The translations under genes were made by a program, and so were the position numbers. From Candidatus Woesearchaeota archaeon (lineage in GTDB: Archaea; Nanobdellota; Nanobdellia; Pacearchaeales; GW2011-AR1): 64,000 nucleotides of DNA. The stretch covers positions 134,922-198,921 of the forward strand of contig CAYPLY010000001.1 in the NCBI GenBank assembly GCA_964412025.1. The letters run 5' to 3'. Positions 2,798 to 61,890 of this stretch are shown in pieces. Under the pieces are notes generated by a model that saw only the letters and a list, made by a program, of their open reading frames with translations, made no database searches and was not told the origin of the DNA. Positions within the stretch are counted from its first letter, which is position 1, and each line of letters begins with the position of its first letter.

Positions 2798-3586
2798 ATG
2801 AAATCCCATCGTTCTTTTAATGTACTTGGCAATATAGCGGTCGTTAACTTTTCGGATAATACTAGTTTGTTAAATAAGAAAAAATTTGCTCAAGAGATAA
2901 TGAATAATAATAACTCTATTAAGACTGTTTTAGAAAAATCTGGGAAGTTTTCTGGTAGATTAAGAAAGATGGAGACAAAACATCTTTTAGGAGAAAGAAA
3001 TAAAGAAGTCCTGTATAGAGAAAATAATTGTTCTTTTAGGTTTAATATAGACACCACCTATTTTTCTCCAAGATTAAGTAATGAGAGGAAAGAAGTTTCT
3101 TCGTTTATAAAAAAGGATTCAAGTGTTTTAGTTATGTTTGCAGGTGTTGCTCCCTTTTCAATCGTTGTTGCAAAAAATTCAAATCCCAAGGAGGTTTATT
3201 CTAATGAAATAAACCGAGAAGCGAATAAGTACGCAGAATTAAATGTTCAGCTAAATAAAGTAAAGGATAAGATAAAATTTGTTAACGGAGATATAAAGAG
3301 AGTTGCTATTAAATTGAAAGAACAAAATAAAAAATTTGATTTTATTTTGATGCCTAGGCCAAATCTTAAGGAGAGTTTTCTAGAGCAGGCATTTATGTTA
3401 AGTAAAAGAGGAACAACCGTTTTTTATTACGATTTTTGTAAGATTGAAGAAAAAGATGAGATTATTCAGAAAGTACAAGATGAGGCTAAACTTTTTAAGA
3501 AAAAAATTAAAATATTAAATGTTAAAAATGCAGGAGAAACTGCCCCTTATAAAGTGCGTGTTAGAATTGATTTCAGGGTATTATAA
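2798..3586 (+). CDS. Trm5/Taw22 (Met-10+ like) tRNA methyltransferase
   Basis: YFSPRLSNER, VLVMFAGVAPFSI SAM motif, NEINREA, MPRP. Confidence 0.88.
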   Translation: MKSHRSFNVLGNIAVVNFSDNTSLLNKKKFAQEIMNNNNSIKTVLEKSGKFSGRLRKMETKHLLGERNKEVLYRENNCSFRFNIDTTYFSPRLSNERKEVSSFIKKDSSVLVMFAGVAPFSIVVAKNSNPKEVYSNEINREANKYAELNVQLNKVKDKIKFVNGDIKRVAIKLKEQNKKFDFILMPRPNLKESFLEQAFMLSKRGTTVFYYDFCKIEEKDEIIQKVQDEAKLFKKKIKILNVKNAGETAPYKVRVRIDFRVL

Positions 3587-4205
3587 CAATTTTGAACCCT
3601 TTTCCGTTTCTTTTTTTATACTCCTCAAAATTTTGTATATCATTATCTTTATTTAATCTGCTGATATTTTTTTCTAAAGAGAATCCATTAAATTTGTCTT
3701 TTATTAATTCCTGCAGACTGTTATACCCAAGAGTCTCATATATTGGTTTGTCTGGACTTAGATTTTTCCCATTTATTATTGTTAGAGACGATCTTTGGAT
3801 ATCTTCTCTTCCAGCATATCCTCCCTTTAAGATATAAACTTCATTTTCTCGCCTGTAGTCAATTCCCCATTTTTCTTTGTTATACAGGAAGTCAATTCCA
3901 AAGTGTAATCTGTAGTCAAAATCCTTGATTACTTTTTTTGACTTATCAAAGTTAAAGTCTTTTGAGGGAGAATGTTCTTCAATAATTAAATCGTGTTCAA
4001 TTCCTTTTAAGTTCATTAGATGCGAGGATGCTAAAGTTAAATCTAAGCAAGGGTTCATAAATCCGGTTTCTCCACTTAATAATATCTGGTTTACTGGACG
4101 TCTTCCAAAATATTTGTTTATCTCTTCGTTTGTCCAATATACTCGTTTTACTTTTTTGTCAACTTCCGAGATTATTTCCTTTGCTGAATTAATTGCATTG
4201 TTCAT
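3573..4205 (-). CDS. Hypothetical protein
   Basis: 210-aa ORF; no family confidently recognised. Confidence 0.65.
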   Translation of the reverse strand: MNNAINSAKEIISEVDKKVKRVYWTNEEINKYFGRRPVNQILLSGETGFMNPCLDLTLASSHLMNLKGIEHDLIIEEHSPSKDFNFDKSKKVIKDFDYRLHFGIDFLYNKEKWGIDYRRENEVYILKGGYAGREDIQRSSLTIINGKNLSPDKPIYETLGYNSLQELIKDKFNGFSLEKNISRLNKDNDIQNFEEYKKRNGKGFKIVIIP

Positions 4206-7488: not shown

Positions 7489-8343
7489 ATGCGTGAATGT
7501 ATCTTATATAATAAACTCCCAGATGAAGAAGTTCAATGTATTGCTTGTAATCATAGATGTTTAATTGATGAGCACAAAAGGGGAATATGCGGGGTTAGAG
7601 AGAATATAAACGGGAAATTATATCTTTTAGTGTATGGATTAATTGTCTCTGAAAATATTGATCCAATTGAAAAAAAACCCTTGTATCATTTTATGCCTAA
7701 GACTAAAACTTATTCTATTGGAACTGTAGGATGTAATTTTAAGTGTTCTTTTTGTCAGAATCATCGTATATCTCAAATGAAAGAGATTATTGGAAATCAT
7801 GTAACTCCGGAAGAAATAGTTGAGAGAGCTTTAGCTTTTGGATGCAAAAGCATTTCCTATACCTATAATGAGCCTACAATTTTTGCTGAGTTTGTTAAAG
7901 ATACTGCAGTTCTTGCTAAAAAAAGAGGACTTAAGAATATCCTTGTTACAAATGGGTATATGACTAAGGAGTGTTTGGATTTTCTTGGAGATTATATTGA
8001 TGCAATGAATATCGATTTGAAATCTTTTAAGGACAAATTTTACAACAAGTTATGCCGGGCAAAATTAAATCCGGTATTAAATACTATAAAACTTGCTTAT
8101 GAAAAGAAGATACATATAGAAATAACTACTTTGGTTATCCCAGGGGAAAACAATTCTATTGAGGAGTTTGAGGGTATTTCAAAGTTTATTTCCGGATTAG
8201 ATAGAGATATTCCCTGGCACATCTCAAGATTTTTTCCTTTATATAAAATGAGAGATAAGCAGCTAACTGCTTTAGAATCATTAGAGAAAGCAGAGAAGAT
8301 AGGCAAAAAGTATTTGAATAATGTTTATTTGGATAATATTTAG
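7489..8343 (+). CDS. amrS: AmmeMemoRadiSam system radical SAM enzyme
   Basis: CxxCxxxC-like N-terminus (CIACNHRC), DPIEKKPLYHF, GCNFKCSFCQN radical SAM motif, YTYNEP. Confidence 0.93.
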   Translation: MRECILYNKLPDEEVQCIACNHRCLIDEHKRGICGVRENINGKLYLLVYGLIVSENIDPIEKKPLYHFMPKTKTYSIGTVGCNFKCSFCQNHRISQMKEIIGNHVTPEEIVERALAFGCKSISYTYNEPTIFAEFVKDTAVLAKKRGLKNILVTNGYMTKECLDFLGDYIDAMNIDLKSFKDKFYNKLCRAKLNPVLNTIKLAYEKKIHIEITTLVIPGENNSIEEFEGISKFISGLDRDIPWHISRFFPLYKMRDKQLTALESLEKAEKIGKKYLNNVYLDNI

Positions 8344-8346
8344 AAT

Positions 8347-8880
8347 ATGGCGATAAAGTTAACTGATATTGCAAGAAAAACTCTTGAAGAGTATTTTAAA
8401 GGTAAAACGTTTATCCCAGATGATCATACTAAAACGATTTACAATCAAAAACAGGCATGTTTTGTTACCTTGACTATTCATGGAAATCTCCGGGGATGTA
8501 TTGGCTCCCTTACTCCACAAAGAGAACTGTGGAAAGATGTTCAAAATAATGCTATTAATGCGGCAATTCATGATTTTAGGTTTTCTAGATTGAGTAAAGA
8601 AGAGTTAGGTGAAGTTAAGATTGAGGTTTCTGTTTTATCTCTTCCTAAAAAAATAAATTTTGTTAATGAGAAAGATTTACTTATGAGGGTGTCTCCCGGT
8701 AAAGGTTTTATATTGAAGAAGGGGACTTCTTCTGCTACTTTTTTACCTCAAGTCTGGGAGCAAATTAAGGATAAGGTTGAATTTTTGGAACAATTGTCTT
8801 TGAAAGCAGGATTGAATAGGAATTCTTGGAGAACAGGAGAGCTTTGGTCTTATACTGTTAATAGCGAAAAGGAAAATTAA
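8347..8880 (+). CDS. amrA: AmmeMemoRadiSam system protein A (AMMECR1 family)
   Basis: ACFVTL, LRGCIG, DFRF, EVSVLS, ATFLPQVW, LSLKAG. Confidence 0.93.
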   Translation: MAIKLTDIARKTLEEYFKGKTFIPDDHTKTIYNQKQACFVTLTIHGNLRGCIGSLTPQRELWKDVQNNAINAAIHDFRFSRLSKEELGEVKIEVSVLSLPKKINFVNEKDLLMRVSPGKGFILKKGTSSATFLPQVWEQIKDKVEFLEQLSLKAGLNRNSWRTGELWSYTVNSEKEN

Positions 8881-10055
8881 CTTTTTAGATATTCCATTTC
8901 TTCTTCATCTAGTTTAAGTTCTTTTGATATCAGAGGATTTGAATTTATTATTTGTTTTATTATTGGAAACTCCCTCATCGCTCTTTTTTGTCCAAGGTGA
9001 GAATATTGTGCATATTTTTCTGCAATTGATTTCTTTTTGGCGGTTCTTTGATTATTCATCCACATCTTTAATATTCTTGTTGGTTTCTTGTACGTTGTAA
9101 AACCCGGTTTGGATTTTGTTTTTGAAGAAGAAATTCCATAACTTAAAAATATATTTTCATAAACTAAAAATCTCCAATATTGTTGTTTGTATATTCTTCC
9201 TCTAAATACATCGGTTTTGCTTAATAAGTCATATGCTCTTGCTAGTTCTACTCCCTTATATTCTTGTGGAATATTTTCTTCTACCCACAATATTATTTCA
9301 TCTATGGGGGTTTTTACAGAGTCGAATATTTTTAGGGTTTCATCACTTGCTTTTTCTTTAAATATATATTTTAATGCGTTAAATATATCTACCTCTTTGT
9401 TTCTCTCATCAAAGTCTATACCTGTCAAATCCTTTAGTTTTGATATTGTTTGTAAATCATTTATTGCAGCTCTCAAATCCCCTTTTGATTTTACTGCTAT
9501 TCTTGTAAGAACTTCATCTTCTATAAACCCTTTTTCTTTTTTTATTATATCTGCGAGTACATCTTTTATTATTCTGTAATCTATATTTCTTAATTGAATT
9601 AGTTCTGCCTGCTTCCTTAGAGGATTTAAAGATTTATCCCATATATCGTTTGCAGTGACTATCACAGGATATTTAGAAGATTCAAGTAGTTCAACAAATT
9701 CTCCAAGTCCTCCCCTATCTACAGTTGATATCCCATCAACTTCATCAACCAGGATTATTTTTCCCTGATTTATTAATGATTTTTGTTCCATAGCTGGTCT
9801 TAAAACCTCTTCCAATCTTTTTTTGTCTCTTAAATCTGAGGCGTTCAGTTCAAAAATCTCCGAATTTGTTTCTTTTCCAATAACATGCGCTATTGTGGTC
9901 TTACCGGTTCCAGGAGGCCCATGTAGAACTATTGCTTTTTTTGAACCTTTTTTATTGAAATCCTCTAAGAATTTTCTAACTTTATCTATTACCTCATTCT
10001 GCCCCTTTATATCTCTAAAATTCTTTGGCCTATATTTTTCAACCCAGGGGCTCAT
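8877..10055 (-). CDS. rfcL: Replication factor C large subunit
   Basis: PWVEKYRPK, GPPGTGKT, ELNASD, DEVD, GDLRAAINDLQ. Confidence 0.92.
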   Translation of the reverse strand: MSPWVEKYRPKNFRDIKGQNEVIDKVRKFLEDFNKKGSKKAIVLHGPPGTGKTTIAHVIGKETNSEIFELNASDLRDKKRLEEVLRPAMEQKSLINQGKIILVDEVDGISTVDRGGLGEFVELLESSKYPVIVTANDIWDKSLNPLRKQAELIQLRNIDYRIIKDVLADIIKKEKGFIEDEVLTRIAVKSKGDLRAAINDLQTISKLKDLTGIDFDERNKEVDIFNALKYIFKEKASDETLKIFDSVKTPIDEIILWVEENIPQEYKGVELARAYDLLSKTDVFRGRIYKQQYWRFLVYENIFLSYGISSSKTKSKPGFTTYKKPTRILKMWMNNQRTAKKKSIAEKYAQYSHLGQKRAMREFPIIKQIINSNPLISKELKLDEEEMEYLKS

Positions 10056-31188: not shown

Positions 31189-31896
31189 ATGAGAAAGGGG
31201 AGAAAAACAATTTATTTTGTGTTAGCTTTTGTGTTTGTGCTAATATTAGCTTCAAGCGTATTTGCCCAATCTCTTGGGTTATCTGGAAAAGCTAAAGAGG
31301 TTGTTGATGAGATTGTAGAGAGTCAAGGAATAGATAAAGAAAAAATTAAATCTGTTGAAAAAGTTGATTTAGATAGTCTTCCTGAACAGGTTGATTTAAA
31401 GAATATTGATACAACTAATCTTGCTATTTATGAAGTTGATTATGGAGGAGAATCTCCTGTTTTTGTTGTTACGGCTTCTGATGAGTTGTTAGAGGCTTCA
31501 ACAGAAGTTGTTCAGATTTATAAGATGTTATTAAATTTCGGGTTGAGTGGAGAATCTAGAGGTTCTGTTTTCCTCAACAGTGCCACAGGAGTTGAAGGAA
31601 GTATTGATAGCGGGTATGTTATGATGAGAGAGGGAAGTTTAACTGGTCTTTCTACTAATTTGAATGTTATTAGTGGAGAAGGGAGTGTGGAGGTTGTTGT
31701 GTATGTAAATAAACAACCTGTAGGATTTAGGAATACTTTTATTGTTGATTCTAATGGTGTGAAGAAGGATTATGATACACAATCTCTTGGGGTTGTTAAG
31801 TTTGAGAAAGGGGATGTTATATCTGCTTATTTGAATATTGAAGGAAATATAATTGTTGAGGATGTTATTAATCTTATTGAGATTTCTACAGAGTAA
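31189..31896 (+). CDS. Secreted/surface hypothetical protein
   Basis: N-terminal signal peptide followed by a beta-rich domain. Confidence 0.7.
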   Translation: MRKGRKTIYFVLAFVFVLILASSVFAQSLGLSGKAKEVVDEIVESQGIDKEKIKSVEKVDLDSLPEQVDLKNIDTTNLAIYEVDYGGESPVFVVTASDELLEASTEVVQIYKMLLNFGLSGESRGSVFLNSATGVEGSIDSGYVMMREGSLTGLSTNLNVISGEGSVEVVVYVNKQPVGFRNTFIVDSNGVKKDYDTQSLGVVKFEKGDVISAYLNIEGNIIVEDVINLIEISTE

Positions 31897-54225: not shown

Positions 54226-55053
54226 TTATAAGCTATCCAAGGGGGATTTTATCTTTGATAAATCTTTTGTGGATACATGTGTGTATACCTCAGTTGTTTT
54301 TAAATCAGAATGTCCTAGCAATTTTTGTATATGTCTTATATCTGTGCCCTGCTCTAATAAATGTGTTGCAAAACTATGCCTTAACATATGTGGAGTTGCT
54401 TTAATTCCTGCTTTTTTTCCAGCTTCATCCAAAACTTTCTGGACGGACTTTTTTGTGTATTTTCCATCACGTCCTTCAAAAACATATTCTGTGTGGAAAG
54501 TATTATTACTGTAGTATTTCAGTAAATCTAATTTTAATGCATCTGAAATAATAGTTACCCTATCCTTTTTCCCTTTTCCCTTTTTGACATTAAGAATATT
54601 TCTCTCAAAGTCAATATCTTTTCTCTTTAAATCAATTAGCTCCTGAAGCCTCAGTCCTGAAGAGTAAAGAAGTTTTATTATCAGTTTATGCTTTAAATTG
54701 TCTGTTAAATTAATCATTTCTTTAATTTTTTCTTTTGAGATAACTTTTGGAAGTTGTTTTTCTTTTTTCTTTATAGGAACTTCCTCAAATGAAAAAGATT
54801 TTCTTAATATCTCTCTGAAAAAGAAACTTATGGAGGCATACTGCAACCTTGAGGAGTTTATACTCAAATTTTGTGATAATAAATATAATTTAACACTGTC
54901 ATTTGATAGATTAAGTCTACTTTTGGAAAGAAAATCTAAAAATTTTCCTGTGTGATATACATAAGATTTGATTGTTTGGTTAGAAAATCCCTTTAAAATA
55001 CATGTTTCTTTTAGTTTTTTTAGATATTCTTCTTTATCTGAAGTATAATTCAT
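54226..55053 (-). CDS. Tyrosine recombinase, XerA/integron-integrase-like, 275 aa
   Basis: N-terminal GFSNQTIKSY SAM-like domain; catalytic R (GLRLQE), K (KGKKDR), HxxR (HMLRHSFATH), H (LGH), Y (EVYTHV). Confidence 0.95.
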   Translation of the reverse strand: MNYTSDKEEYLKKLKETCILKGFSNQTIKSYVYHTGKFLDFLSKSRLNLSNDSVKLYLLSQNLSINSSRLQYASISFFFREILRKSFSFEEVPIKKKEKQLPKVISKEKIKEMINLTDNLKHKLIIKLLYSSGLRLQELIDLKRKDIDFERNILNVKKGKGKKDRVTIISDALKLDLLKYYSNNTFHTEYVFEGRDGKYTKKSVQKVLDEAGKKAGIKATPHMLRHSFATHLLEQGTDIRHIQKLLGHSDLKTTEVYTHVSTKDLSKIKSPLDSL

Positions 55054-55093
55054 AAAGGAACTTTAACTTCATTTTATTTAAAGATATATGTGT

Positions 55094-55121
55094 AAGATAA
55101 TAACCTTTGGGTTATAATCTA
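55094..55121. promoter_or_regulatory. 11-6-11 inverted-repeat site AAGATAATAAC-CTTTGG-GTTATAATCTA (putative recombinase binding site)
   Basis: Arms 9/11 complementary; 41 bp upstream of the recombinase ATG. Confidence 0.6.
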
Positions 55122-55128
55122 CTTTTCA

Positions 55129-55156
55129 AGTAGATATAATAGATGTTATATTCAAT
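55129..55156 (+). other. dif/attI-like recombination junction AGTAGATATAA-TAGATG-TTATATTCAAT (left cassette boundary)
   Basis: TATAA-N6-TTATA core of Xer-type sites; GATGTTAT repeated at the right boundary (59070-59077). Confidence 0.75.
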
Positions 55157-55293
55157 TTTTGGATTACTCAAGACGGAAAAGAGAGAGGGGCTTAGTCCTT
55201 CGGACATTTTGCCTTTTACTTCGTAAAAGAATTTATAGGAAGGAGCGTCAAGATAGTCTTTTTCTACGAAAAAGAAATTTACTAGGTGGCGTC
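55156..55293 (-). repeat. Structured GACGC-hairpin repeat element after the M1 stop codon (inverted homolog of 58696-58849)
   Basis: Shared AGTAATCCAAAAA (13 bp), GCCCCTCTCTC (11 bp), GACGC units with T/A-rich hairpins, GTCC-TTCG-GAC. Confidence 0.75.
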
Positions 55294-56079
55294 TTAACAA
55301 TAATCCTTTAATTTAGTATTCTTTTTATGTTTACTTATTCTTTTATTCGCTAACTCGATGTATTCCTTATTATTATCTATGCCAATCCAATTTCGATTTA
55401 ATTGCATGGATGCCAAAGCAGTTGTTCCACTTCCCATAAAGGGGTCAATAACAATGTCTCCTTCATCTGTTGCCATCTCAATTAATCTTGTAAATAATTC
55501 TAAGGGTTTTTGAGTTGGATGTGCTGCTCTCCCATTTTCTCCTTTAATTCTTTCAGAACCTTGACAAACTGGAAACTCCCAAACATCTTTTAACTGCTTA
55601 CCTTGATTATACTTTTTCATATTGTTATAATTAAATTTCCATCCTTTCCCCTTTGCAAACCATGCAATAAATTCCGTAGAATGAGTTAATGTTCTTTTCG
55701 TAATACTTGGCATAGGATTTGTTTTTCTCCATGTTATCAGATTAATAAATTTGTATCCTTTATCTTTTAAAGCTACAATTACTTCTCCTATATTATGTAA
55801 AGAACCACAAACCATCATCGAACCATTTGGAGCAAGAATCTTATCAGCCTCATCAATCCATTTTTTTGTAAAGTCCATATAATCTTCATAAGAGAATTTA
55901 TCCCATTTTTCATTTACTTTGTAATATGCTCCACCTGTTTTATTATCTGGCAGATTTACTCCACCATTTGATGCATTATATGGTGGGTCAGTTAATACTA
56001 AATGAATTTTTCCTTTAGGAAAATCCCCCATTATCTTTATACAATCTCCTTCATGATTTTTATTTATTACATTATTCAT
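55294..56079 (-). CDS. N6A/N4C DNA methyltransferase, beta class (M1)
   Basis: TDPPY, HPTQKP, DPFMGSGTT in beta-class order. Confidence 0.93.
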   Translation of the reverse strand: MNNVINKNHEGDCIKIMGDFPKGKIHLVLTDPPYNASNGGVNLPDNKTGGAYYKVNEKWDKFSYEDYMDFTKKWIDEADKILAPNGSMMVCGSLHNIGEVIVALKDKGYKFINLITWRKTNPMPSITKRTLTHSTEFIAWFAKGKGWKFNYNNMKKYNQGKQLKDVWEFPVCQGSERIKGENGRAAHPTQKPLELFTRLIEMATDEGDIVIDPFMGSGTTALASMQLNRNWIGIDNNKEYIELANKRISKHKKNTKLKDYC

Positions 56080-57908
56080 GCTAAAATACCTTCTTTTTCA
56101 TATTTTTGAAGAATTGTATTAGATTTTCTCGCCCAATCATCAACATCTTTGGAATCTATTGCGACATTATGTAGTGTTAATAATAATTCTTTAAACTCGT
56201 TATGAGTAATTGGTTTATTTTCTAATTTTTTTATTAACACTCTTTTTAATATTTTTAAAAATTGAGTTATGCTCAGAGGAATTATTTTTTGTTTTTCTCC
56301 CTCATACTCATATTTGTTTGAAAAGCTAAATGTGTTAAAAGTATCTCTGTGAATTCTTGGGGCAATAAACAAACAAAAAGAATTATCATTATTTTTAATT
56401 TCAAAATCTCTTAAATGCCTCATAACTGGTTGTCCTTCATTAATCCATTGACTTCTACTTACTAACATAGTAACTTCACAAATCATATTGAAAGATTCAT
56501 AAACACATTCTATATCTGGAACATTGGCTGGTGCTGTAAAAGTTGGTCTGTTATCATCTCCTACAGGATAATTAGGCTGTATTTTCAAGGCGTCATTAAT
56601 CGCATGTAAGCATAACGTTGTTAGGTGTTCTAGTTCTATTGATTGGCTTTTATCACTTCCATGAATATTTTCAAGAGTTTTGATTACTTCCTTAAAATTA
56701 TCAGCATTAGCTAATTCTGTATGATTAATATACTCCTGCACTCTTCGCCTAAGAATTCTTAAATCTGCCATTATTGGTTTTAATTCATTAACTCTCAATG
56801 ATTCAATGTTTACTTCAAATAATTTTTTCTCTAAAGTTAATGGTTTGCTTAGAGATTTGTTTAATTCAAATATTTCTTTTCTAAGGTTCACAATAATATT
56901 TTTTAATTTGTCTTGTGTATCCCATGGATAGATTACATCAGAATCCATATAATCAAGGTATTCCTCAAGAGTTTTGAATTTCAAACCTTCACCATTACTA
57001 TATTCCAGAAGAGAGGTTATTTCAACATTTCTTCTCGGTTCTAAATCAATATAGAAACCACCACCACGAATATAAAAGAATCTTGTTATCTTAAAATATC
57101 GGATTGCATTATCACCATAATCTTTTAAATTATGAAAGTTTATATCGAGATGTTTTCCTTCGGGATCTTCAAAGAATTTTTTAGTTTTATCTGTAAAACA
57201 ATCTTTTTTTATTGCAGTTTGTTCTTTTTTGTCTTTACCTTTTAATTTATTTCTTAATGCAATAATTTCATTAACTGTTTTAGGGATGTCATCATAATTA
57301 ATTGTAGTTGGCACAAAATAACAAAATTCATGTTTAGAAATTCCGACAGGTTCATTCCCTAATTTTTTCCATTTCTTGTTTACTTCATTGATAATATGAA
57401 GAGTTGTAATAAATGGTCTTACATTAAAACCATTTTTTTCAGAAAACTCTTCATTATCTGGATTTGGTAAAGTCCATTTAAAGAAATATTCTAAGAAAAT
57501 TTCTCCCATGTCGAAATCTTTTTGTAAAAATTTCTTTCCAAAATTTGTGATGTATAGTTTACTTACTGTTTGTTTAGATACAACCAAACCCATTTTACTA
57601 AGCGGGGCAATAGATGTCCTTCCTCTTAGCCCAGGGTCATCTTTTAAAACAGTAGATTTTTCTTTCATATGTTCAAAAATTTCTTTTGCTTCTTTTTCTG
57701 ACATATCAGAAGGAGAATTATAATAGCCCGATAATTTTTCATTAAGGCCTGTTGGTTTATACAGCTTTCTTTTAATCAATGCTATTTGAAATTTTATCTG
57801 TTGATTCTCATTAAATTCAACACCCTCAAAATCTTTAAGAACTTCCAAAAACCCCCTAATTCTATCGGGATTTCTTACAGTAGTTGAAATTGACCATGCT
57901 CTTTTCAT
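56076..57908 (-). CDS. AlwI-family type IIS restriction endonuclease
   Basis: WSISTTVRNPDRI N-terminus, DYGDNAIRYF, APANVPDIE...EVT, EGQPVMRH, FIAP; flanked by two MTases. Confidence 0.8.
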   Translation of the reverse strand: MKRAWSISTTVRNPDRIRGFLEVLKDFEGVEFNENQQIKFQIALIKRKLYKPTGLNEKLSGYYNSPSDMSEKEAKEIFEHMKEKSTVLKDDPGLRGRTSIAPLSKMGLVVSKQTVSKLYITNFGKKFLQKDFDMGEIFLEYFFKWTLPNPDNEEFSEKNGFNVRPFITTLHIINEVNKKWKKLGNEPVGISKHEFCYFVPTTINYDDIPKTVNEIIALRNKLKGKDKKEQTAIKKDCFTDKTKKFFEDPEGKHLDINFHNLKDYGDNAIRYFKITRFFYIRGGGFYIDLEPRRNVEITSLLEYSNGEGLKFKTLEEYLDYMDSDVIYPWDTQDKLKNIIVNLRKEIFELNKSLSKPLTLEKKLFEVNIESLRVNELKPIMADLRILRRRVQEYINHTELANADNFKEVIKTLENIHGSDKSQSIELEHLTTLCLHAINDALKIQPNYPVGDDNRPTFTAPANVPDIECVYESFNMICEVTMLVSRSQWINEGQPVMRHLRDFEIKNNDNSFCLFIAPRIHRDTFNTFSFSNKYEYEGEKQKIIPLSITQFLKILKRVLIKKLENKPITHNEFKELLLTLHNVAIDSKDVDDWARKSNTILQKYEKEGILA

Positions 57909-57977
57909 AATATTTTACCCCTCATACTATCTTAAAAGCCAACATATTTAAATATTATGCGTTTTAGGGGTTATATT

Positions 57978-58697
57978 ATGGCAAAAAAGAATGTTGATTT
58001 GAAAAAAGGGGAATGTGTAAGTATTCTTAAGAAAATGCCAGACAATTCCGTAGATATGATATTTGCAGACCCTCCTTATAATCTTTCTGGAAAAAATCAT
58101 ATTACTTGTGTTAATGGAAGAAAAGTAAAATGTGATAAAGGTATTTGGGACATGGTCGCAGATATTGATAAATTTAATTATGATTGGATAAAAGAGTGTA
58201 TGCGTGTTCTAAAGGATGATGGAACTATCTGGATTTCAGGAACATTACATAACCATCCTTCTGTTGGCTTTTTACTTAAAAAAATGGGATACTGGATAAT
58301 AAATGATATTGTTTGGTTTAAACCAAATGCTCCCCCTCAATTACAACCTAATAGACTTGCTCCATCTACCGAGATGATTTGGTTAGCGAGTAAGACAAAA
58401 AAATATTATTTTGATTATAAAAAAGCAAAGGAAATTAATGACGGAAAACAAATGAGAAACCTTTGGACTATTAATGCTCAAAGACATATCACAAATCACC
58501 CTACTGAAAAGCCAGAACTTCTTTTAGAAAGGATAATTCTTCTTGGAAGTAAAGAAGGCGATGTTATCTTAGATCCTTTTATGGGTTCAGGAACAACAGG
58601 AGCAGTCGCTAAAAAGTTAAATAGAAGTTTTATAGGGATTGAACTTGACGATGAATTCTTTGAAATTGCAAAAGATAGAATAAATAATACTAAATGA
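57978..58697 (+). CDS. N6A/N4C DNA methyltransferase, beta class (M2)
   Basis: FADPPY, HPTEKP, DPFMGSGTT; ATG 57978. Confidence 0.93.
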   Translation: MAKKNVDLKKGECVSILKKMPDNSVDMIFADPPYNLSGKNHITCVNGRKVKCDKGIWDMVADIDKFNYDWIKECMRVLKDDGTIWISGTLHNHPSVGFLLKKMGYWIINDIVWFKPNAPPQLQPNRLAPSTEMIWLASKTKKYYFDYKKAKEINDGKQMRNLWTINAQRHITNHPTEKPELLLERIILLGSKEGDVILDPFMGSGTTGAVAKKLNRSFIGIELDDEFFEIAKDRINNTK

Positions 58698-58849
58698 CGC
58701 CCCTAAATGTTCTTTTTAGAAAAGAACCAAAACAAGACGCCCCTTCTATCTTCTTTTTTAGAAAAAAGAAGCAAAAAATCTGACGCCCCTCTCTCGTCCT
58801 TCGGACATATTCACTCGCCTTTGGCTCGAATTTATCAGTAATCCAAAAA
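58696..58849 (+). repeat. Three GACGCCCC units (58696, 58736, 58782) with intervening hairpins, after the M2 stop codon
   Basis: Hairpins GTTCTTTT/AAAAGAAC and CTTCTTTTT/AAAAAGAAG; TTCG-loop hairpin at 58796. Confidence 0.8.
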
Positions 58850-58909
58850 CTCTAAAATTTTGCCTTCGGCATCGTTGCACTAAATTTTAGGTCTTCCCGT
58901 TGGTCAGAC

Positions 58910-59080
58910 GAATATAACAGGGCTTAACCGACTACGAAACCTTGCAGGTTTCTCCGTCCAAATTTTGCCCCATCTCTGAAAAAATTCTCAGCTCTGTTTC
59001 GGTTTTGTGGGTTGCCTCAAAACCTCACGAGGAGAATTTTTTCGAGGGGTCAAAACTTCGTTTAAGCCCGATGTTATGTG
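58910..59080 (+). other. attC-like ssDNA hairpin recombination site (~170 nt)
   Basis: ATAAC/GTTAT outer stem, GGGCTTAA/TTAAGCCC, TTTTGCCCC/GGGG-T-CAAAA with an extrahelical T, GAAAAAATTCTC/GAGAATTTTTTC, GGTTTTG/CAAAACC. Confidence 0.78.
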
Positions 59081-59110
59081 CAATCTAGAAATATCTTGTT
59101 TATTCAATCA

Positions 59111-60388
59111 TCATTCTCCCTCAAACTTAATAAGGCTAAAGAAAGGATATTTTGAAATCTTTTCTTTTCCTTTTAATTCCGGAAGTTCCATAACAAACAT
59201 ACACCCAATAATTTGTCCCCCTACTTTTTCAATAAGGTTTACAGCTGCTTTAACTGTTCCACCTGTTGCAATTAAATCGTCAACAAGTAATACTTTTTGT
59301 CCTGGTTTTATAGAGTCTTTATGTATTTCAACTGCATCCTCTCCATACTCCAAAGAATAACTTTCTTTTACTGTTTCGTAGGGTAATTTTCCTGGCTTTC
59401 TTATTAAAGCTAATCCTGCATTTAACTTTTCAGCTAAAAGGCCTGCAATGATAAAACCCCTTGATTCAATTCCTGCAACTATATCTATTGGTATTTCATA
59501 ACATTTTTCGTAAAGTATTTCTGTAAGTTTTTTAAGAGATTCTCTATCTTGAAGGAGAGGAGTCACATCTTTAAACATAATTCCTTCTTTTGGAAAGTTT
59601 GGAATTGTACGTACTTTTTCTTTTAGTTTTTGAATTTCTTGTTCTCTTGAAAAAGAGTTTATCGCATCAAAAATAACTTTTTTGACACGTTCAGCATTTT
59701 CCTTCATATTATTTTTTATTGTTAACCAATCTACTGGTTCTTCATCTTCTTTCCAGCAGTCATAATCCGTTGACATTGCTATTGTTGCATATTGTACTTC
59801 TGCCTCGTTTGCAAGAATGGCTTCAGGAGATGTAGACATATTTATTATATCTCCTCCCCATTGTCTGAAAAGGTGGCTTTCTGCTTTGGTTGAGAATCTT
59901 GGCCCTTCTATTGTTATAACTGTTCCAGTTTTATGGTATGAGAATTTTAATTTTTCACAGCTTTCAGTTAGCTTTTTTCTTAATTCTTCCGAAAAAGGAT
60001 TTGCCATGGGAGTGTGGATTGGACCAAATTCAAACTTATCAAAAAAGGTTAGTTTTCTGTTTTTTGTAAAATCAATAAATTGATCTGGAATAATAAAATC
60101 TCCTCTCTTTATTTCTTCTCTAAGTGAGCCCGCGGCTGTTGTTGAGATTATAAATTTACAACCTTCATTTTTTAGTGCAAATATATTTGCACGATTGTTT
60201 ACTTCTGTTGGAGGGATTTCATGTTTTATCCCATGCCTTGAAATTATAAAGACATCTATGCTCCCTATCTTTCCAATTGTCAATGGAGAAGATGGTTTTC
60301 CAAAAGGGGTTTCTACTTCTTTTGTTTTGTAATCTGTAAGAATCTCTGGATTCTCAAGCCCAGAACCACCTATTATACCAATTTTCAT
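59111..60388 (-). CDS. Fused methylthioadenosine phosphorylase (MTAP) - adenine phosphoribosyltransferase (APRT)
   Basis: IGIIGGSG, RHG, IEGPRFSTKAES, TDYD, then PNFPKEGIMFKD, GIESRGF, RKPGKLP, LLVDDLIATGGT; ATG 60388. Confidence 0.92.
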   Translation of the reverse strand: MKIGIIGGSGLENPEILTDYKTKEVETPFGKPSSPLTIGKIGSIDVFIISRHGIKHEIPPTEVNNRANIFALKNEGCKFIISTTAAGSLREEIKRGDFIIPDQFIDFTKNRKLTFFDKFEFGPIHTPMANPFSEELRKKLTESCEKLKFSYHKTGTVITIEGPRFSTKAESHLFRQWGGDIINMSTSPEAILANEAEVQYATIAMSTDYDCWKEDEEPVDWLTIKNNMKENAERVKKVIFDAINSFSREQEIQKLKEKVRTIPNFPKEGIMFKDVTPLLQDRESLKKLTEILYEKCYEIPIDIVAGIESRGFIIAGLLAEKLNAGLALIRKPGKLPYETVKESYSLEYGEDAVEIHKDSIKPGQKVLLVDDLIATGGTVKAAVNLIEKVGGQIIGCMFVMELPELKGKEKISKYPFFSLIKFEGE

Positions 60389-60441
60389 AATAAATATTGG
60401 AGAGGAAAAGATTTTATAAGTATTTTTGTAATGAAAGATAC

Positions 60442-61890
60442 ATGTTAAACCCATCGAAAAATGAGGTTCGTAAACCTACAAAAACAATCTCAGGTATAAC
60501 TCCTGTAGCAGTTATGTTGCCTCCTAGAAAATGCAAGCATGGTAATTGTATTTATTGCCCTTCAATGGATGTCCCCCAAAGTTATACCCCAAAAAGTCCT
60601 GTTGTGTTAAGGGCTAAATCTCTGGATTATAATTCTTACAAACAGGTTGTTTCTCGTCTTAAGGCATTTGAAGTTATGAATCATCCAACTGAAAAAATTG
60701 AGTTGATAATTATGGGAGGAACTTTTTTGGAATATCCTGAAAAATTTCAGTACAAATTTATAAAAGGATTGTATGATGGATTAAATGGTAAGGTTTCTAA
60801 TAATCTGAGCGAGGCAAAAAAATTAAATGAAAATTCAAAACATAGATGTGTTGCGCTTTGTATTGAAACTAGGCCAGATGTTTGTTGTGAATTTATCTCA
60901 AGAATGAGAGAATTTGGATGTACAAGGGTGGAGTTGGGTGTGCAATTAATAGATGATAAAGTGTATAAATTTGTAAAAAGAGGACATCTAGTTAAAGATG
61001 TTGTTTTAGCTACAAAATGTTTGAGAGATGCAGGTTTTAAGATAGGTTATCATTTAATGCCTGGGCTTCCTGGAAGTAATTTAAAGAAAGATTTGGAATT
61101 ATTTAAGAAGATTTTTTCTGATGAAAGATTTAAACCCGATCAGATTAAAATTTATCCTTGTCAAGTATTGCCCAATTCTGAACTTGAAAAAATTTATTGG
61201 GAAGGAAAATACAAACCTTATACTCCGGAGGAGATTCAGAAACTTTTAGTTAGTATGTTAAAAGTTATTCCAAGATATTGTAGGGTAATGAGGATTATGA
61301 GAGAAATTCCATTGGAATATTTAATTGCTGGAAGCAAAGATATTGGAATAAGGAAAGATGTTGAAGATGAGTTAAGAAAAGAAAAAGTTAAATTGAAAGA
61401 AATTAGATATAGAGAGGTTGGTTTTAATAAAGAAGGAATGAATTTAGATTTGAAATTAAAAGCAACCCCTTATAAAGCTTCAGGAGGAAAAGAGTATTTT
61501 TTGGAGATTGTTAATAAAGATAATGTGCTTTTTGGGTTACTTCGTTTGAGAATAGTTAGCAGTAATCTCGTTAAGAGGGGTTCGAGGAGTAATAAGCTTG
61601 GTTCAACGGGTAATAAGCTGAAAACTGTTGTTACAGATAATAAAATAGGATTAGTAAGAGAACTGCATGTTTATGGGCAGAGTTTGAAATTGGGAGAACT
61701 TGGAAAAGTTGGTCAACACACTGGTTTGGGAAAATGGTTAATGGAGGAAGCTGAAAAAATTGCGAAAAAAGAAAAATGCTCTGAGATTAAAGTGATTTCA
61801 GGAGTGGGGGTTAGGGAGTATTACAGGAAGTTAGGTTATGAATTGGAGAAAGGAAAAGGTAAAGGAGAATATATGAGAAAGCTTTTATAG
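60442..61890 (+). CDS. elp3: Elp3 tRNA wobble-uridine acetyltransferase (radical SAM plus GNAT)
   Basis: CKHGNCIYCP, MGGTF, ETRPD, VELGVQ, RELHVYG, QHTGLG, ISGVGVREYY. Confidence 0.94.
   Translation: MLNPSKNEVRKPTKTISGITPVAVMLPPRKCKHGNCIYCPSMDVPQSYTPKSPVVLRAKSLDYNSYKQVVSRLKAFEVMNHPTEKIELIIMGGTFLEYPEKFQYKFIKGLYDGLNGKVSNNLSEAKKLNENSKHRCVALCIETRPDVCCEFISRMREFGCTRVELGVQLIDDKVYKFVKRGHLVKDVVLATKCLRDAGFKIGYHLMPGLPGSNLKKDLELFKKIFSDERFKPDQIKIYPCQVLPNSELEKIYWEGKYKPYTPEEIQKLLVSMLKVIPRYCRVMRIMREIPLEYLIAGSKDIGIRKDVEDELRKEKVKLKEIRYREVGFNKEGMNLDLKLKATPYKASGGKEYFLEIVNKDNVLFGLLRLRIVSSNLVKRGSRSNKLGSTGNKLKTVVTDNKIGLVRELHVYGQSLKLGELGKVGQHTGLGKWLMEEAEKIAKKEKCSEIKVISGVGVREYYRKLGYELEKGKGKGEYMRKLL

Follow-up and report, generated by a model that had tools for sequence, protein, structure and literature searches.

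Integrons are defined by the integrase IntI, and both their Xer-like origin and their presence outside Bacteria are open questions. Other systems build on Xer enzymes themselves. Integrative mobile elements exploiting Xer (IMEXs) are phages or islands that use XerC/XerD heterodimers, not arrays of single-gene cassettes, and we know of no cassette-start logic that runs across arrays in them; CTX phage employs a folded single-stranded attP and strand exchange by XerC only. The pdif modules of Acinetobacter plasmids are accessory genes bounded by Xer-type sites, full duplex XerC/XerD sites in inverted orientation, and are thought to move by Xer recombination. Here we describe a locus in a 64-kb stretch of a DPANN archaeon (hereafter the window; coordinates are positions within it) at which a gene cassette ending in a folded DNA element lies beside the recombinase gene xerA, so that the cassette logic of integrons can be followed to the single nucleotide, here with a XerA orthologue that has no IntI insert and in very small genomes.

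Cassette arrays have been reported from archaeal metagenome-assembled genomes (MAGs) by Ghaly et al. 2022 (PMC9668308), who defined them by an IntI with its additional domain, of which six were found, and by a bacterial attC model. The same study records a few Pacearchaeales and Woesearchaeales genomes with two to five attCs and no IntI; XerA, dif and a docking site adjacent to xerA are not discussed there, Xer proteins entering as an outgroup only. In the XerA/dif system known from Thermococcales and Sulfolobus, XerA acts without FtsK in vitro, and the dif site of Thermococcales does not lie beside xerA (Cortez et al. 2010, PMC2958812). Our full-text search of the literature, outside the coverage of which most subscription journals lie, found no description of XerA-linked cassette arrays.

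We consider it probable that the locus is the one-cassette case of an integron-like gene-capture platform belonging to DPANN archaea of the Pacearchaeota and Woesearchaeota type, and we hold with high confidence that a site-specific cassette platform exists at G|TT beside xerA. Its principal features are these:

54226-55053, minus strand: xerA, a tyrosine recombinase of 275 amino acids (aa), with Pfam Phage_integrase (6.9e-40) and a SAM-like N-terminal domain.
55129-55156, plus strand: docking site (attI-like, dif-like 11-6-11), AGTAGATATAA-TAGATG-TTATATTCAAT, 75 bp upstream of the xerA start codon.
55146-59073, plus strand: gene cassette of 3,928 bp, opening with the TT that follows the docking-site G and closing with the G of the hairpin G|TT.
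58909-59075, plus strand: attC-like folded element, matched by covariance model R1 at 82.4 bits (E 4e-15), the only match in the window.
59074-59084, plus strand: distal right arm, the 11-mer TTATGTGCAAT after the folded element.

The anatomy proposed in the initial annotation stands when recomputed. The recombinase reading frame (54226-55053, minus strand, 275 aa) is intact and read away from the site upstream of its ATG, which occupies 55129-55156 at a spacing of 75 nucleotides (nt); the 8-bp word GATGTTAT is duplicated at both junctions (55142-55149 and 59070-59077); positions 58910-58918 (GAATATAAC) and 55145-55153 are exact reverse complements; the two G|TT points enclose a segment of 3,928 bp (55146-59073), which ends in an attC-like hairpin (~58914-59079, ~165 nt); and to the right TTATGTGCAAT ends at 59084, with the end of a housekeeping gene at 59111, 27 bp on. 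Folded as DNA, the hairpin reaches -39.6 kcal/mol, against -19.0 for shuffles (z = -6.4, 0/200). The cassette boundaries are based on the 8-bp identity at the two junctions together with the complementarity between R'' and the cassette start, and they place the crossover between G55145 and T55146, or inside ATGTT. The match to the docking site is unique in the 64 kb, where none is expected by chance, and has the 11-6-11 architecture of dif, with a right arm that is not conserved among relatives. The short words themselves are not rare in the window (GAATATAAC n = 6, GATGTTAT n = 8), and the case therefore rests on their position and on comparative data.

Comparison with relatives locates the variable part of the locus to the nucleotide. 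The region upstream of xerA could be oriented in 25 species-level genomes and 13 further contigs, which together yield ~33 distinct alleles; these are conserved through ...AAGTAGAYNTAA-TAKATG|TT and diverge completely right after it, and the distance from docking site to xerA is 75-95 bp in all of them, over a range of XerA identity of 44-95%. One and the same XerA protein (P0004) is encoded by ten contigs from different samples; these share the same DNA up to TAGATGTT, which is then followed by at least four unrelated sequences, so that the alternative cassettes that the initial annotation had advised looking for at the same G|TT do exist, even among contigs with an identical XerA protein. 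In the closest relative (95% identical XerA) the breakpoint is followed by TTAGTTTCAATTTTTGAGAAT (also written TTAGTTTCAAT), a cassette start that is also found in two more distant genomes. Contig breaks fall less than 600 bp from xerA in 14 of 25 close genome contigs, as is expected where strains of one population differ; ...ATGTT is the very end of three contigs, and a fourth extends one base beyond it. We reject chance or an assembly artefact as the origin of the breakpoint, because it recurs identically across independent samples and assemblies.

The expectation that relatives would show an empty or an alternatively filled site was realised in its second half, since alternative fillings were found but an unambiguous empty site was not. 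One relative, L007, shows the predicted ...TAGATG|TTATGTGCAAT, yet this is indistinguishable from a cassette start; and because the MTAP-APRT gene on the right side of the window's cassette was seen in no relative within the flanks examined for synteny, a clean empty site for the window lineage is not demonstrable. The TTATGTGCAAT 11-mer stands directly after the docking site in L007 and after 19 elements in metagenome contigs, and at 59074-59084 it would derive either from the docking site, as its original right half, or from a lost neighbour, as its R'. Another cassette start, TTGCTTGGCTTCGCCCAAA, recurs in five genomes (L002, L005, L008, L024 and L066) with XerA identities of ~73-88%, which suggests that one cassette family is shared horizontally among them.

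Relatives carry one to seven cassettes after the docking site, each ending in a folded element, with seven cassettes in 6.5 kb in L025 and six in L005. As a simple regular-expression detector of hairpins gave 40 matches in shuffled DNA, we used a covariance model instead. Built from 14 elements, it returned 30 good matches in genome loci (7 in L025, 6 in L005) and a further 122 in 67 metagenome contigs, which had been retrieved with the 3' end of the element as query; no folded element was found in the viral contigs searched. The matches all lie on one strand in 73 of 75 contigs, and xerA is adjacent and divergent to the array wherever a contig includes it. The window agrees with this pattern, having a primary site 75 bp from the recombinase gene and a unidirectional array, here of one cassette. 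Cassettes in relatives span 210-2,414 bp and usually contain one gene, on either strand. Recognisable products comprise a GNAT acetyltransferase, an NTPase, S-adenosylmethionine (SAM) methyltransferases and one kinase-family match below the Pfam cutoff, while most products have no family match and one cassette has no open reading frame (ORF); this 210-bp cassette sits at the docking site of one P0004 strain (L060 479-691, minus strand) and holds little beyond its folded element. One contig, L084, has folded elements of the same orientation on both sides of xerA (39-125 and 7815-9239; xerA at 3312-4136), an arrangement that a simple one-sided array does not predict.

The claim that R'' matches the start of its own cassette and not the sequence after the hairpin holds in the window and in multi-cassette arrays. 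Comparison of the junctions shows that whatever of R' lies beyond G|TT comes to stand at the cassette's 5' end on insertion: a crossover at G|TT moves the outer R' to the cassette front, and R'' consequently matches its own cassette start. When the six variable bases of each R'' are set against the six after the previous GTT, all six agree in 35 of 68 pairs and five in another 13, giving a mean of 4.87, whereas the sequence downstream of the element itself gives 2.96 and random junctions 3.13. Among 63 discriminating pairs, 49 speak for the cassette start and 7 for the own downstream sequence, with 7 ties, counts that are slightly inflated by a few contigs that duplicate each other. Worked cases that obey the rule are elements 2, 4, 6 and 7 of L025, elements 1 and 2 of L005, and L017, L019 and L059. 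A helix between R'' and R', the outermost of the structure, is possible only in the excised cassette. The junction predicted for such a circle, ...AAGCCCGATG|TTATATTCAA (also written ...TTAAGCCCGATG|TTATATTCAAT; outward form ...AAGCCCGATG|TTATATTCAATTTTTGG), does occur as a sequence in 38 metagenome contigs, but in every case inside an array, and none is a proven circle. Three of these contigs (L080, L124 and L130) agree with the window cassette both in R'' and in the start module, TTTTTGGATTACT.

The folded element of the window is composed, from 5' to 3', of the following parts:

58909-58918, plus strand: R'', CGAATATAAC.
58920-58927, plus strand: L'', GGGCTTAA, with hairpin P2 after it.
58958-58964, plus strand: junction strand CCAAATT.
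58990-58997 and 59026-59032, plus strand: long hairpin P3, with CAGCTCTG and CACGAGG respectively.
59044-59049, plus strand: AACTTC.
59061-59068, plus strand: L', TTAAGCCC.
59070-59071, plus strand: bulge GA.
59072-59075, plus strand: TG|TT, the end of the element.

Among relatives the element is 79-180 nt long. It begins with six variable bases, TAAC-A and an L helix of ~11 bp that starts with GSGMTTAA, continues through hairpin P2, a CCCAAAT junction strand, hairpin P3 and an (A)ACTT junction strand, and closes with the second strand of the L helix, two bulged nt (GA, AA or CA) and TG|TT; AAC and GTT vary hardly or not at all. Pairing reaches 90-94% of the cells in the basal helix, where covariation is 0.38 and 0.33; shuffles give 0.12 and 0.08 (0/500), and slid partners no more than 0.09. 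Compensatory changes affect 19 of 22 pairs across P1, P2 and P3 in an alignment that was not fitted to the model, and at the level of sequence this covariation supports all three helices. G-U cells number 5 among 1,456 and one-sided changes 4 against 180 two-sided ones, a pattern that is atypical of RNA and fits a DNA structure. Mispairs on the top strand (A-C 16, G-T 10) did not identify which strand folds. Searches of Rfam at gathering and permissive thresholds returned only three tRNAs and chance-level matches, with nothing in 54.9-59.3 kb. A split structured RNA or group II intron, considered on account of TTCG-looking loops, was rejected: the loops are triloops on 4-bp stems, there is no family match and G-U pairs are nearly absent.

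On profile and structural matches the 275-aa recombinase is an archaeal XerA orthologue without the insert that defines integron integrases. Its catalytic motifs are intact (GLRLQEL, HMLRHSFATH, LGHS and EVYTHV, for R...HxxR...H...Y). It passes the NCBIfam equivalog model for archaeal XerA, recomb_XerA_Arch (NF040815), with 224.9 bits against a cutoff of 220, and fails the integron-integrase model TIGR02249 with 203.6 bits against 265, the latter match consisting of two stretches that skip profile positions ~180-253, the IntI-specific insert. The best solved structure is XerA of Pyrococcus abyssi (4a8e, 1e-47), which aligns collinearly. Against Vibrio IntI4/VchIntIA (2a3v) the alignment falls into two pieces, query residues 174-203 standing opposite IntI 174-246 and ~43 IntI residues being unmatched. 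The suspicion that tools built on IntI profiles could miss such a system was thus well founded, as screens of this kind would pass over the enzyme because the IntI-specific insert is absent.

Homologues with 70-95% identity form more than 100 protein clusters from Pacearchaeota, Woesearchaeota and Nanoarchaeota MAGs; exact-protein look-ups gave no record matching either the XerA or the restriction enzyme of the window. The gene sits in a conserved block of xerA, SAM methyltransferase, ORF and ThrRS, with this flank syntenic in relatives, and its identity to relatives is 88% where that of ThrRS is 86%. From this conserved synteny and parallel divergence it follows that xerA is a core gene and no part of a mobile element; on the comparisons made, it is vertically inherited. 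It is the sole tyrosine recombinase in the window, and neither an IntI-type protein nor a second tyrosine recombinase was seen on any array-bearing contig. In one MAG a second, partial XerA-like gene lies among folded elements (L024 7774-8370, in the same MAG as L009; 72% identity over residues 69-267), which may be a duplicated or decayed platform; that MAG also has a full xerA on another contig. Two contigs binned to the candidate phyla radiation (CPR), L037 (4039-6837, 8001-8822; Andersenbacteria) and L041 (5793-5888, 8001-8774; Magasanikbacteria), have folded elements of this kind, with ...GAAC|GTT at the end, upstream of a XerA/IntI-like recombinase of 258-274 aa without the IntI insert. 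Of the three elements in L037, one has an R'' that fits the junction before it, and the third has an R'' that fits the start beside a putative docking site (GTTCATTTAATAACCAG|TTAGCTGA).

In proposing how cassettes might be captured, we distinguish a fixed part, the core gene xerA with the dif-like site 75 bp upstream and its constant left arm and central ...ATG, from a mobile part, the cassettes, every one of which has a folded DNA element with a three-way junction at its end. That XerA is the catalysing enzyme seems likely to us, and on balance we favour folded single-stranded DNA as the substrate. The folded element would act as a mimic of dif, offering a right-arm duplex made by R'' and R', six paired positions from which the two bases GA are flipped out, and an L helix that begins with TTAA. 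Along the 5' strand of the element (GAATATAA-CAGGGC-TTAA) the spacing is 6 nt, as in the docking site, and along the 3' strand it is 8 nt, reduced to 6 if both conserved bases of the bulge flip out. The analogy of IntI/attC and of CTX phage/XerCD suggests that XerA would then cut at G|TT and exchange a single strand of the folded cassette site with the chromosomal site, leaving a strand-exchange intermediate that replication would resolve. The ATG beside the crossover contains the only central-region bases common to all docking sites and all elements, and the confinement of this sharing to the crossover side fits the requirement of a single strand exchange at the right-arm boundary. A passage in the review PMC8371274, citing Cortez 2010, reports that XerA of P. 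abyssi binds stem-loop att structures, with lower affinity.

The alternative that survives best, although we regard it as unlikely, is that the cassettes are small IMEX-type elements integrating in tandem as double-stranded DNA, XerA acting on a duplex dif-like core (L'-GATG-R') and the folded element serving otherwise, as a replication origin, terminator or packaging signal. Such an explanation would account for a dif-like site that adjoins xerA, for cassette starts that keep TTnnnnn(C)AAT and so resemble the XerA right arm, for an element without its own recombinase, and for a left junction in the window that regenerates a good 11-6-11 site. It fares poorly at the other junction, where the attC-side left arm ACTTCGTTTAA is not XerA-like and stands 8 nt, not 6, from the right arm, and where the central regions agree at only 4 of 6 bases (TAGATG and CCGATG); moreover, compensatory changes keep R''/R' and the three helices, for which recognition of a duplex would not select.

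We think it improbable to a greater degree that these are ordinary integron-type arrays served by an unlinked recombinase, IntI or another integrase, with xerA merely beside a hot spot. The attC clusters without IntI in a few Pacearchaeales and Woesearchaeales MAGs, and the six IntI elsewhere in Archaea, lend this idea some substance (Ghaly et al. 2022, PMC9668308), as does the span of 64 kb from which the evidence on this genome comes. Set against it are the distance of 75-95 bp between docking site and xerA in all ~33 alleles at XerA identities of 44-95%, the XerA-type arm and spacer architecture of the docking site, and the finding of no second tyrosine recombinase in the window or on array contigs. 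Finally, we rate as very improbable a reading of the folded elements as structured RNAs belonging to accessory genes, be they 3' terminators, stabilisers or small RNAs, in a region varied by homologous and not by site-specific recombination. The region is GC-enriched (0.40-0.43, against ~0.30) and gives good RNA folds on either strand (z = -4.3 and -5.5), but there is no Rfam family match, G-U pairs and one-sided changes hardly occur, the elements keep a fixed orientation with respect to xerA and not to the cargo genes, which are on either strand, the breakpoint is sharp to the single nucleotide, and the pairing partner of R'' is a sequence as far as 3.9 kb away that adjoins it only in a circle.

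Several observations weigh against a XerA-driven platform that uses folded cassette sites. Our recombinase scan covered 64 kb and short contigs, and the enzyme could be encoded elsewhere in these genomes. The L arm of the element resembles the XerA arm only at the inner TTA/TAA, which makes binding by XerA an assumption. Some alleles are not arm-like after G|TT (e.g. TTGCTTGGCTT), which is awkward if the site must double as dif. Cassette genes lie on either strand, whereas those of classical integrons are mostly co-oriented. Some 10-20% of consecutive pairs break the cassette rule, and these may represent missed elements, or other processes. No circular cassette has been observed, the junction-like sequences lying within arrays. 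The covariation analysis drew on two alignments that were fitted to the model (A3 and A4) as well as on two that were not (A2 and A5). Anatomy, an exact shared breakpoint, allele variation at the level of strains, cassette logic and helix covariation are all present in these sequences.

The cassette of the window codes only for restriction-modification genes and lacks a recombinase of its own. By family assignment its cargo is a type IIS restriction-modification system of the AlwI type, with one endonuclease and two methyltransferases, enclosed by two non-coding modules:

55146-55293, plus strand: non-coding 5' module, with TTATATTCAATTTTTGGATTACT..., GAGAGGGGC, GTCCTTCGGAC and two short hairpins.
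55294-56079, minus strand: DNA methyltransferase M1, N6/N4 class, 261 aa, Pfam N6_N4_Mtase (PF01555) 3.9e-62.
56076-57908, minus strand: AlwI-family type IIS restriction endonuclease, 610 aa, RE_AlwI (PF09491) 5.9e-87 over 441/441 profile positions.
57957-58697, plus strand: DNA methyltransferase M2, N6/N4 class, 246 aa, Pfam N6_N4_Mtase (PF01555) 1.3e-58.
58698-58908, plus strand: non-coding 3' module, with three GACGCCCC-plus-hairpin units, GTCCTTCGGAC, AGTAATCCAAAAA and a hairpin with the conserved loop TGCCTTCGGCATCGTTGCAC.

Homologues of these DNA methyltransferases are present in three other arrays. The non-coding ends of the cassette (55146-55293 and 58698-58918) form an extended imperfect inverted repeat, both holding GACGCCCC-plus-hairpin units, GCCCCTCTCTC, GTCCTTCGGAC and AGTAATCCAAAAA. 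When the cassette is circularised in silico, its 524 non-coding nt fold into one rod with 68 cross pairs between the ends, at -108.9 kcal/mol, compared with -75.7 in the linear chromosomal context; complementarity from end to end, in weaker form, is general among the cassettes of relatives (p = 3.5e-7). The 5' start module of the window also occurs in L031, L080, L109, L124 and L130, and within the 3' module a 48-nt stretch (58847-58894) is identical in L019 and its stem covaries in L025.

Beyond the cassette, three features of the surrounding sequence may be recorded:

55112-55139, plus strand: perfect-looking palindrome read from the sequence, made of an inverted left-arm copy TTATAATCTACTT (55112-55124), a TTC spacer and the left arm AAGTAGATATAA.
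59111-60454, minus strand: MTAP-APRT fusion, a single ORF of 447 aa with a PNP_UDP_1 phosphorylase domain (MTA/purine nucleoside phosphorylase type) and a phosphoribosyltransferase domain.
31524-31868, plus strand: three copies of GATGTTAT inside 345 bp, probably a within-gene repeat and apparently unrelated to the docking site.

The palindrome, possibly an accessory binding site or a hairpin, is kept in most close relatives and missing in L013, L014, L015, L018 and L023. The fusion ORF looks like a one-protein module for adenine salvage.

Should XerA prove to be the catalyst, it would follow that gene capture can be driven by a recombinase of the housekeeping type, that IntI-based surveys count too few such systems, and that DPANN archaea, possibly with CPR bacteria, own a dedicated route to defence and accessory genes; the folded element, as a compact mimic of dif with conserved junction strands, would also be a tractable means of learning how DNA structure is recognised by Xer enzymes. 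We lean, somewhat more than we doubt, towards the broader view that there is a second, widespread kind of integron, in which a XerA-type recombinase of DPANN archaea, perhaps also of CPR bacteria, captures and shuffles cassettes at a dif-like site beside its own gene by means of folded dif mimics. Were this true, the system could be a living relative of the ancestor of IntI integrons, or an independent reinvention, and it would explain archaeal attC clusters without IntI.

Among known systems the bacterial integrons provide the closest likeness. As in these, the recombinase gene stands divergent beside a primary site, arrays are unidirectional and mostly of single-gene cassettes, and the cargo is accessory or related to defence, with ORF-less cassettes among it; the recombination site is again an imperfect palindrome bounded by ...AAC and GTT..., with bulged bases, a crossover at G|TT and an R'' that matches its own cassette start. 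Unlike in integrons, the enzyme is a XerA orthologue without the IntI-specific insert, the primary site is dif-like (11-6-11), the elements are three-way junctions of 79-180 nt with conserved CCCAAAT and ACTT strands and a spacer asymmetry of 0-1 and 2 nt, cargo lies on either strand and the hosts are DPANN archaea. These spacers (0-1 and 2 nt) and the three-way junction set the elements apart from canonical attC. The system is accordingly integron-like in its logic and, as judged from the enzyme's sequence, is not an integron by the standard definition, the IntI-specific domain being absent when tested. The DPANN attC clusters of Ghaly et al. and the present elements have been compared by description only.

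The resemblance to IMEXs lies in an element without its own integrase at a dif-like site near a Xer enzyme, with GATG|TTAT at both junctions, and that to CTX phage in the proposed folded-strand mimic with an imperfect central region, in which identity is limited to one cleavage side. Unlike IMEXs, however, the platform has a single XerA, and each of its cassettes carries its own folded site. The pdif modules differ in having no folded elements, no array beside a xer gene and no G|TT cassette logic. The XerA/dif systems that resolve chromosome dimers in Thermococcales and Sulfolobus share with this locus both the protein family and the 11-6-11 architecture of the site; there no cassettes are attached to dif, whereas here the first cassette replaces the right arm of the dif-like site.

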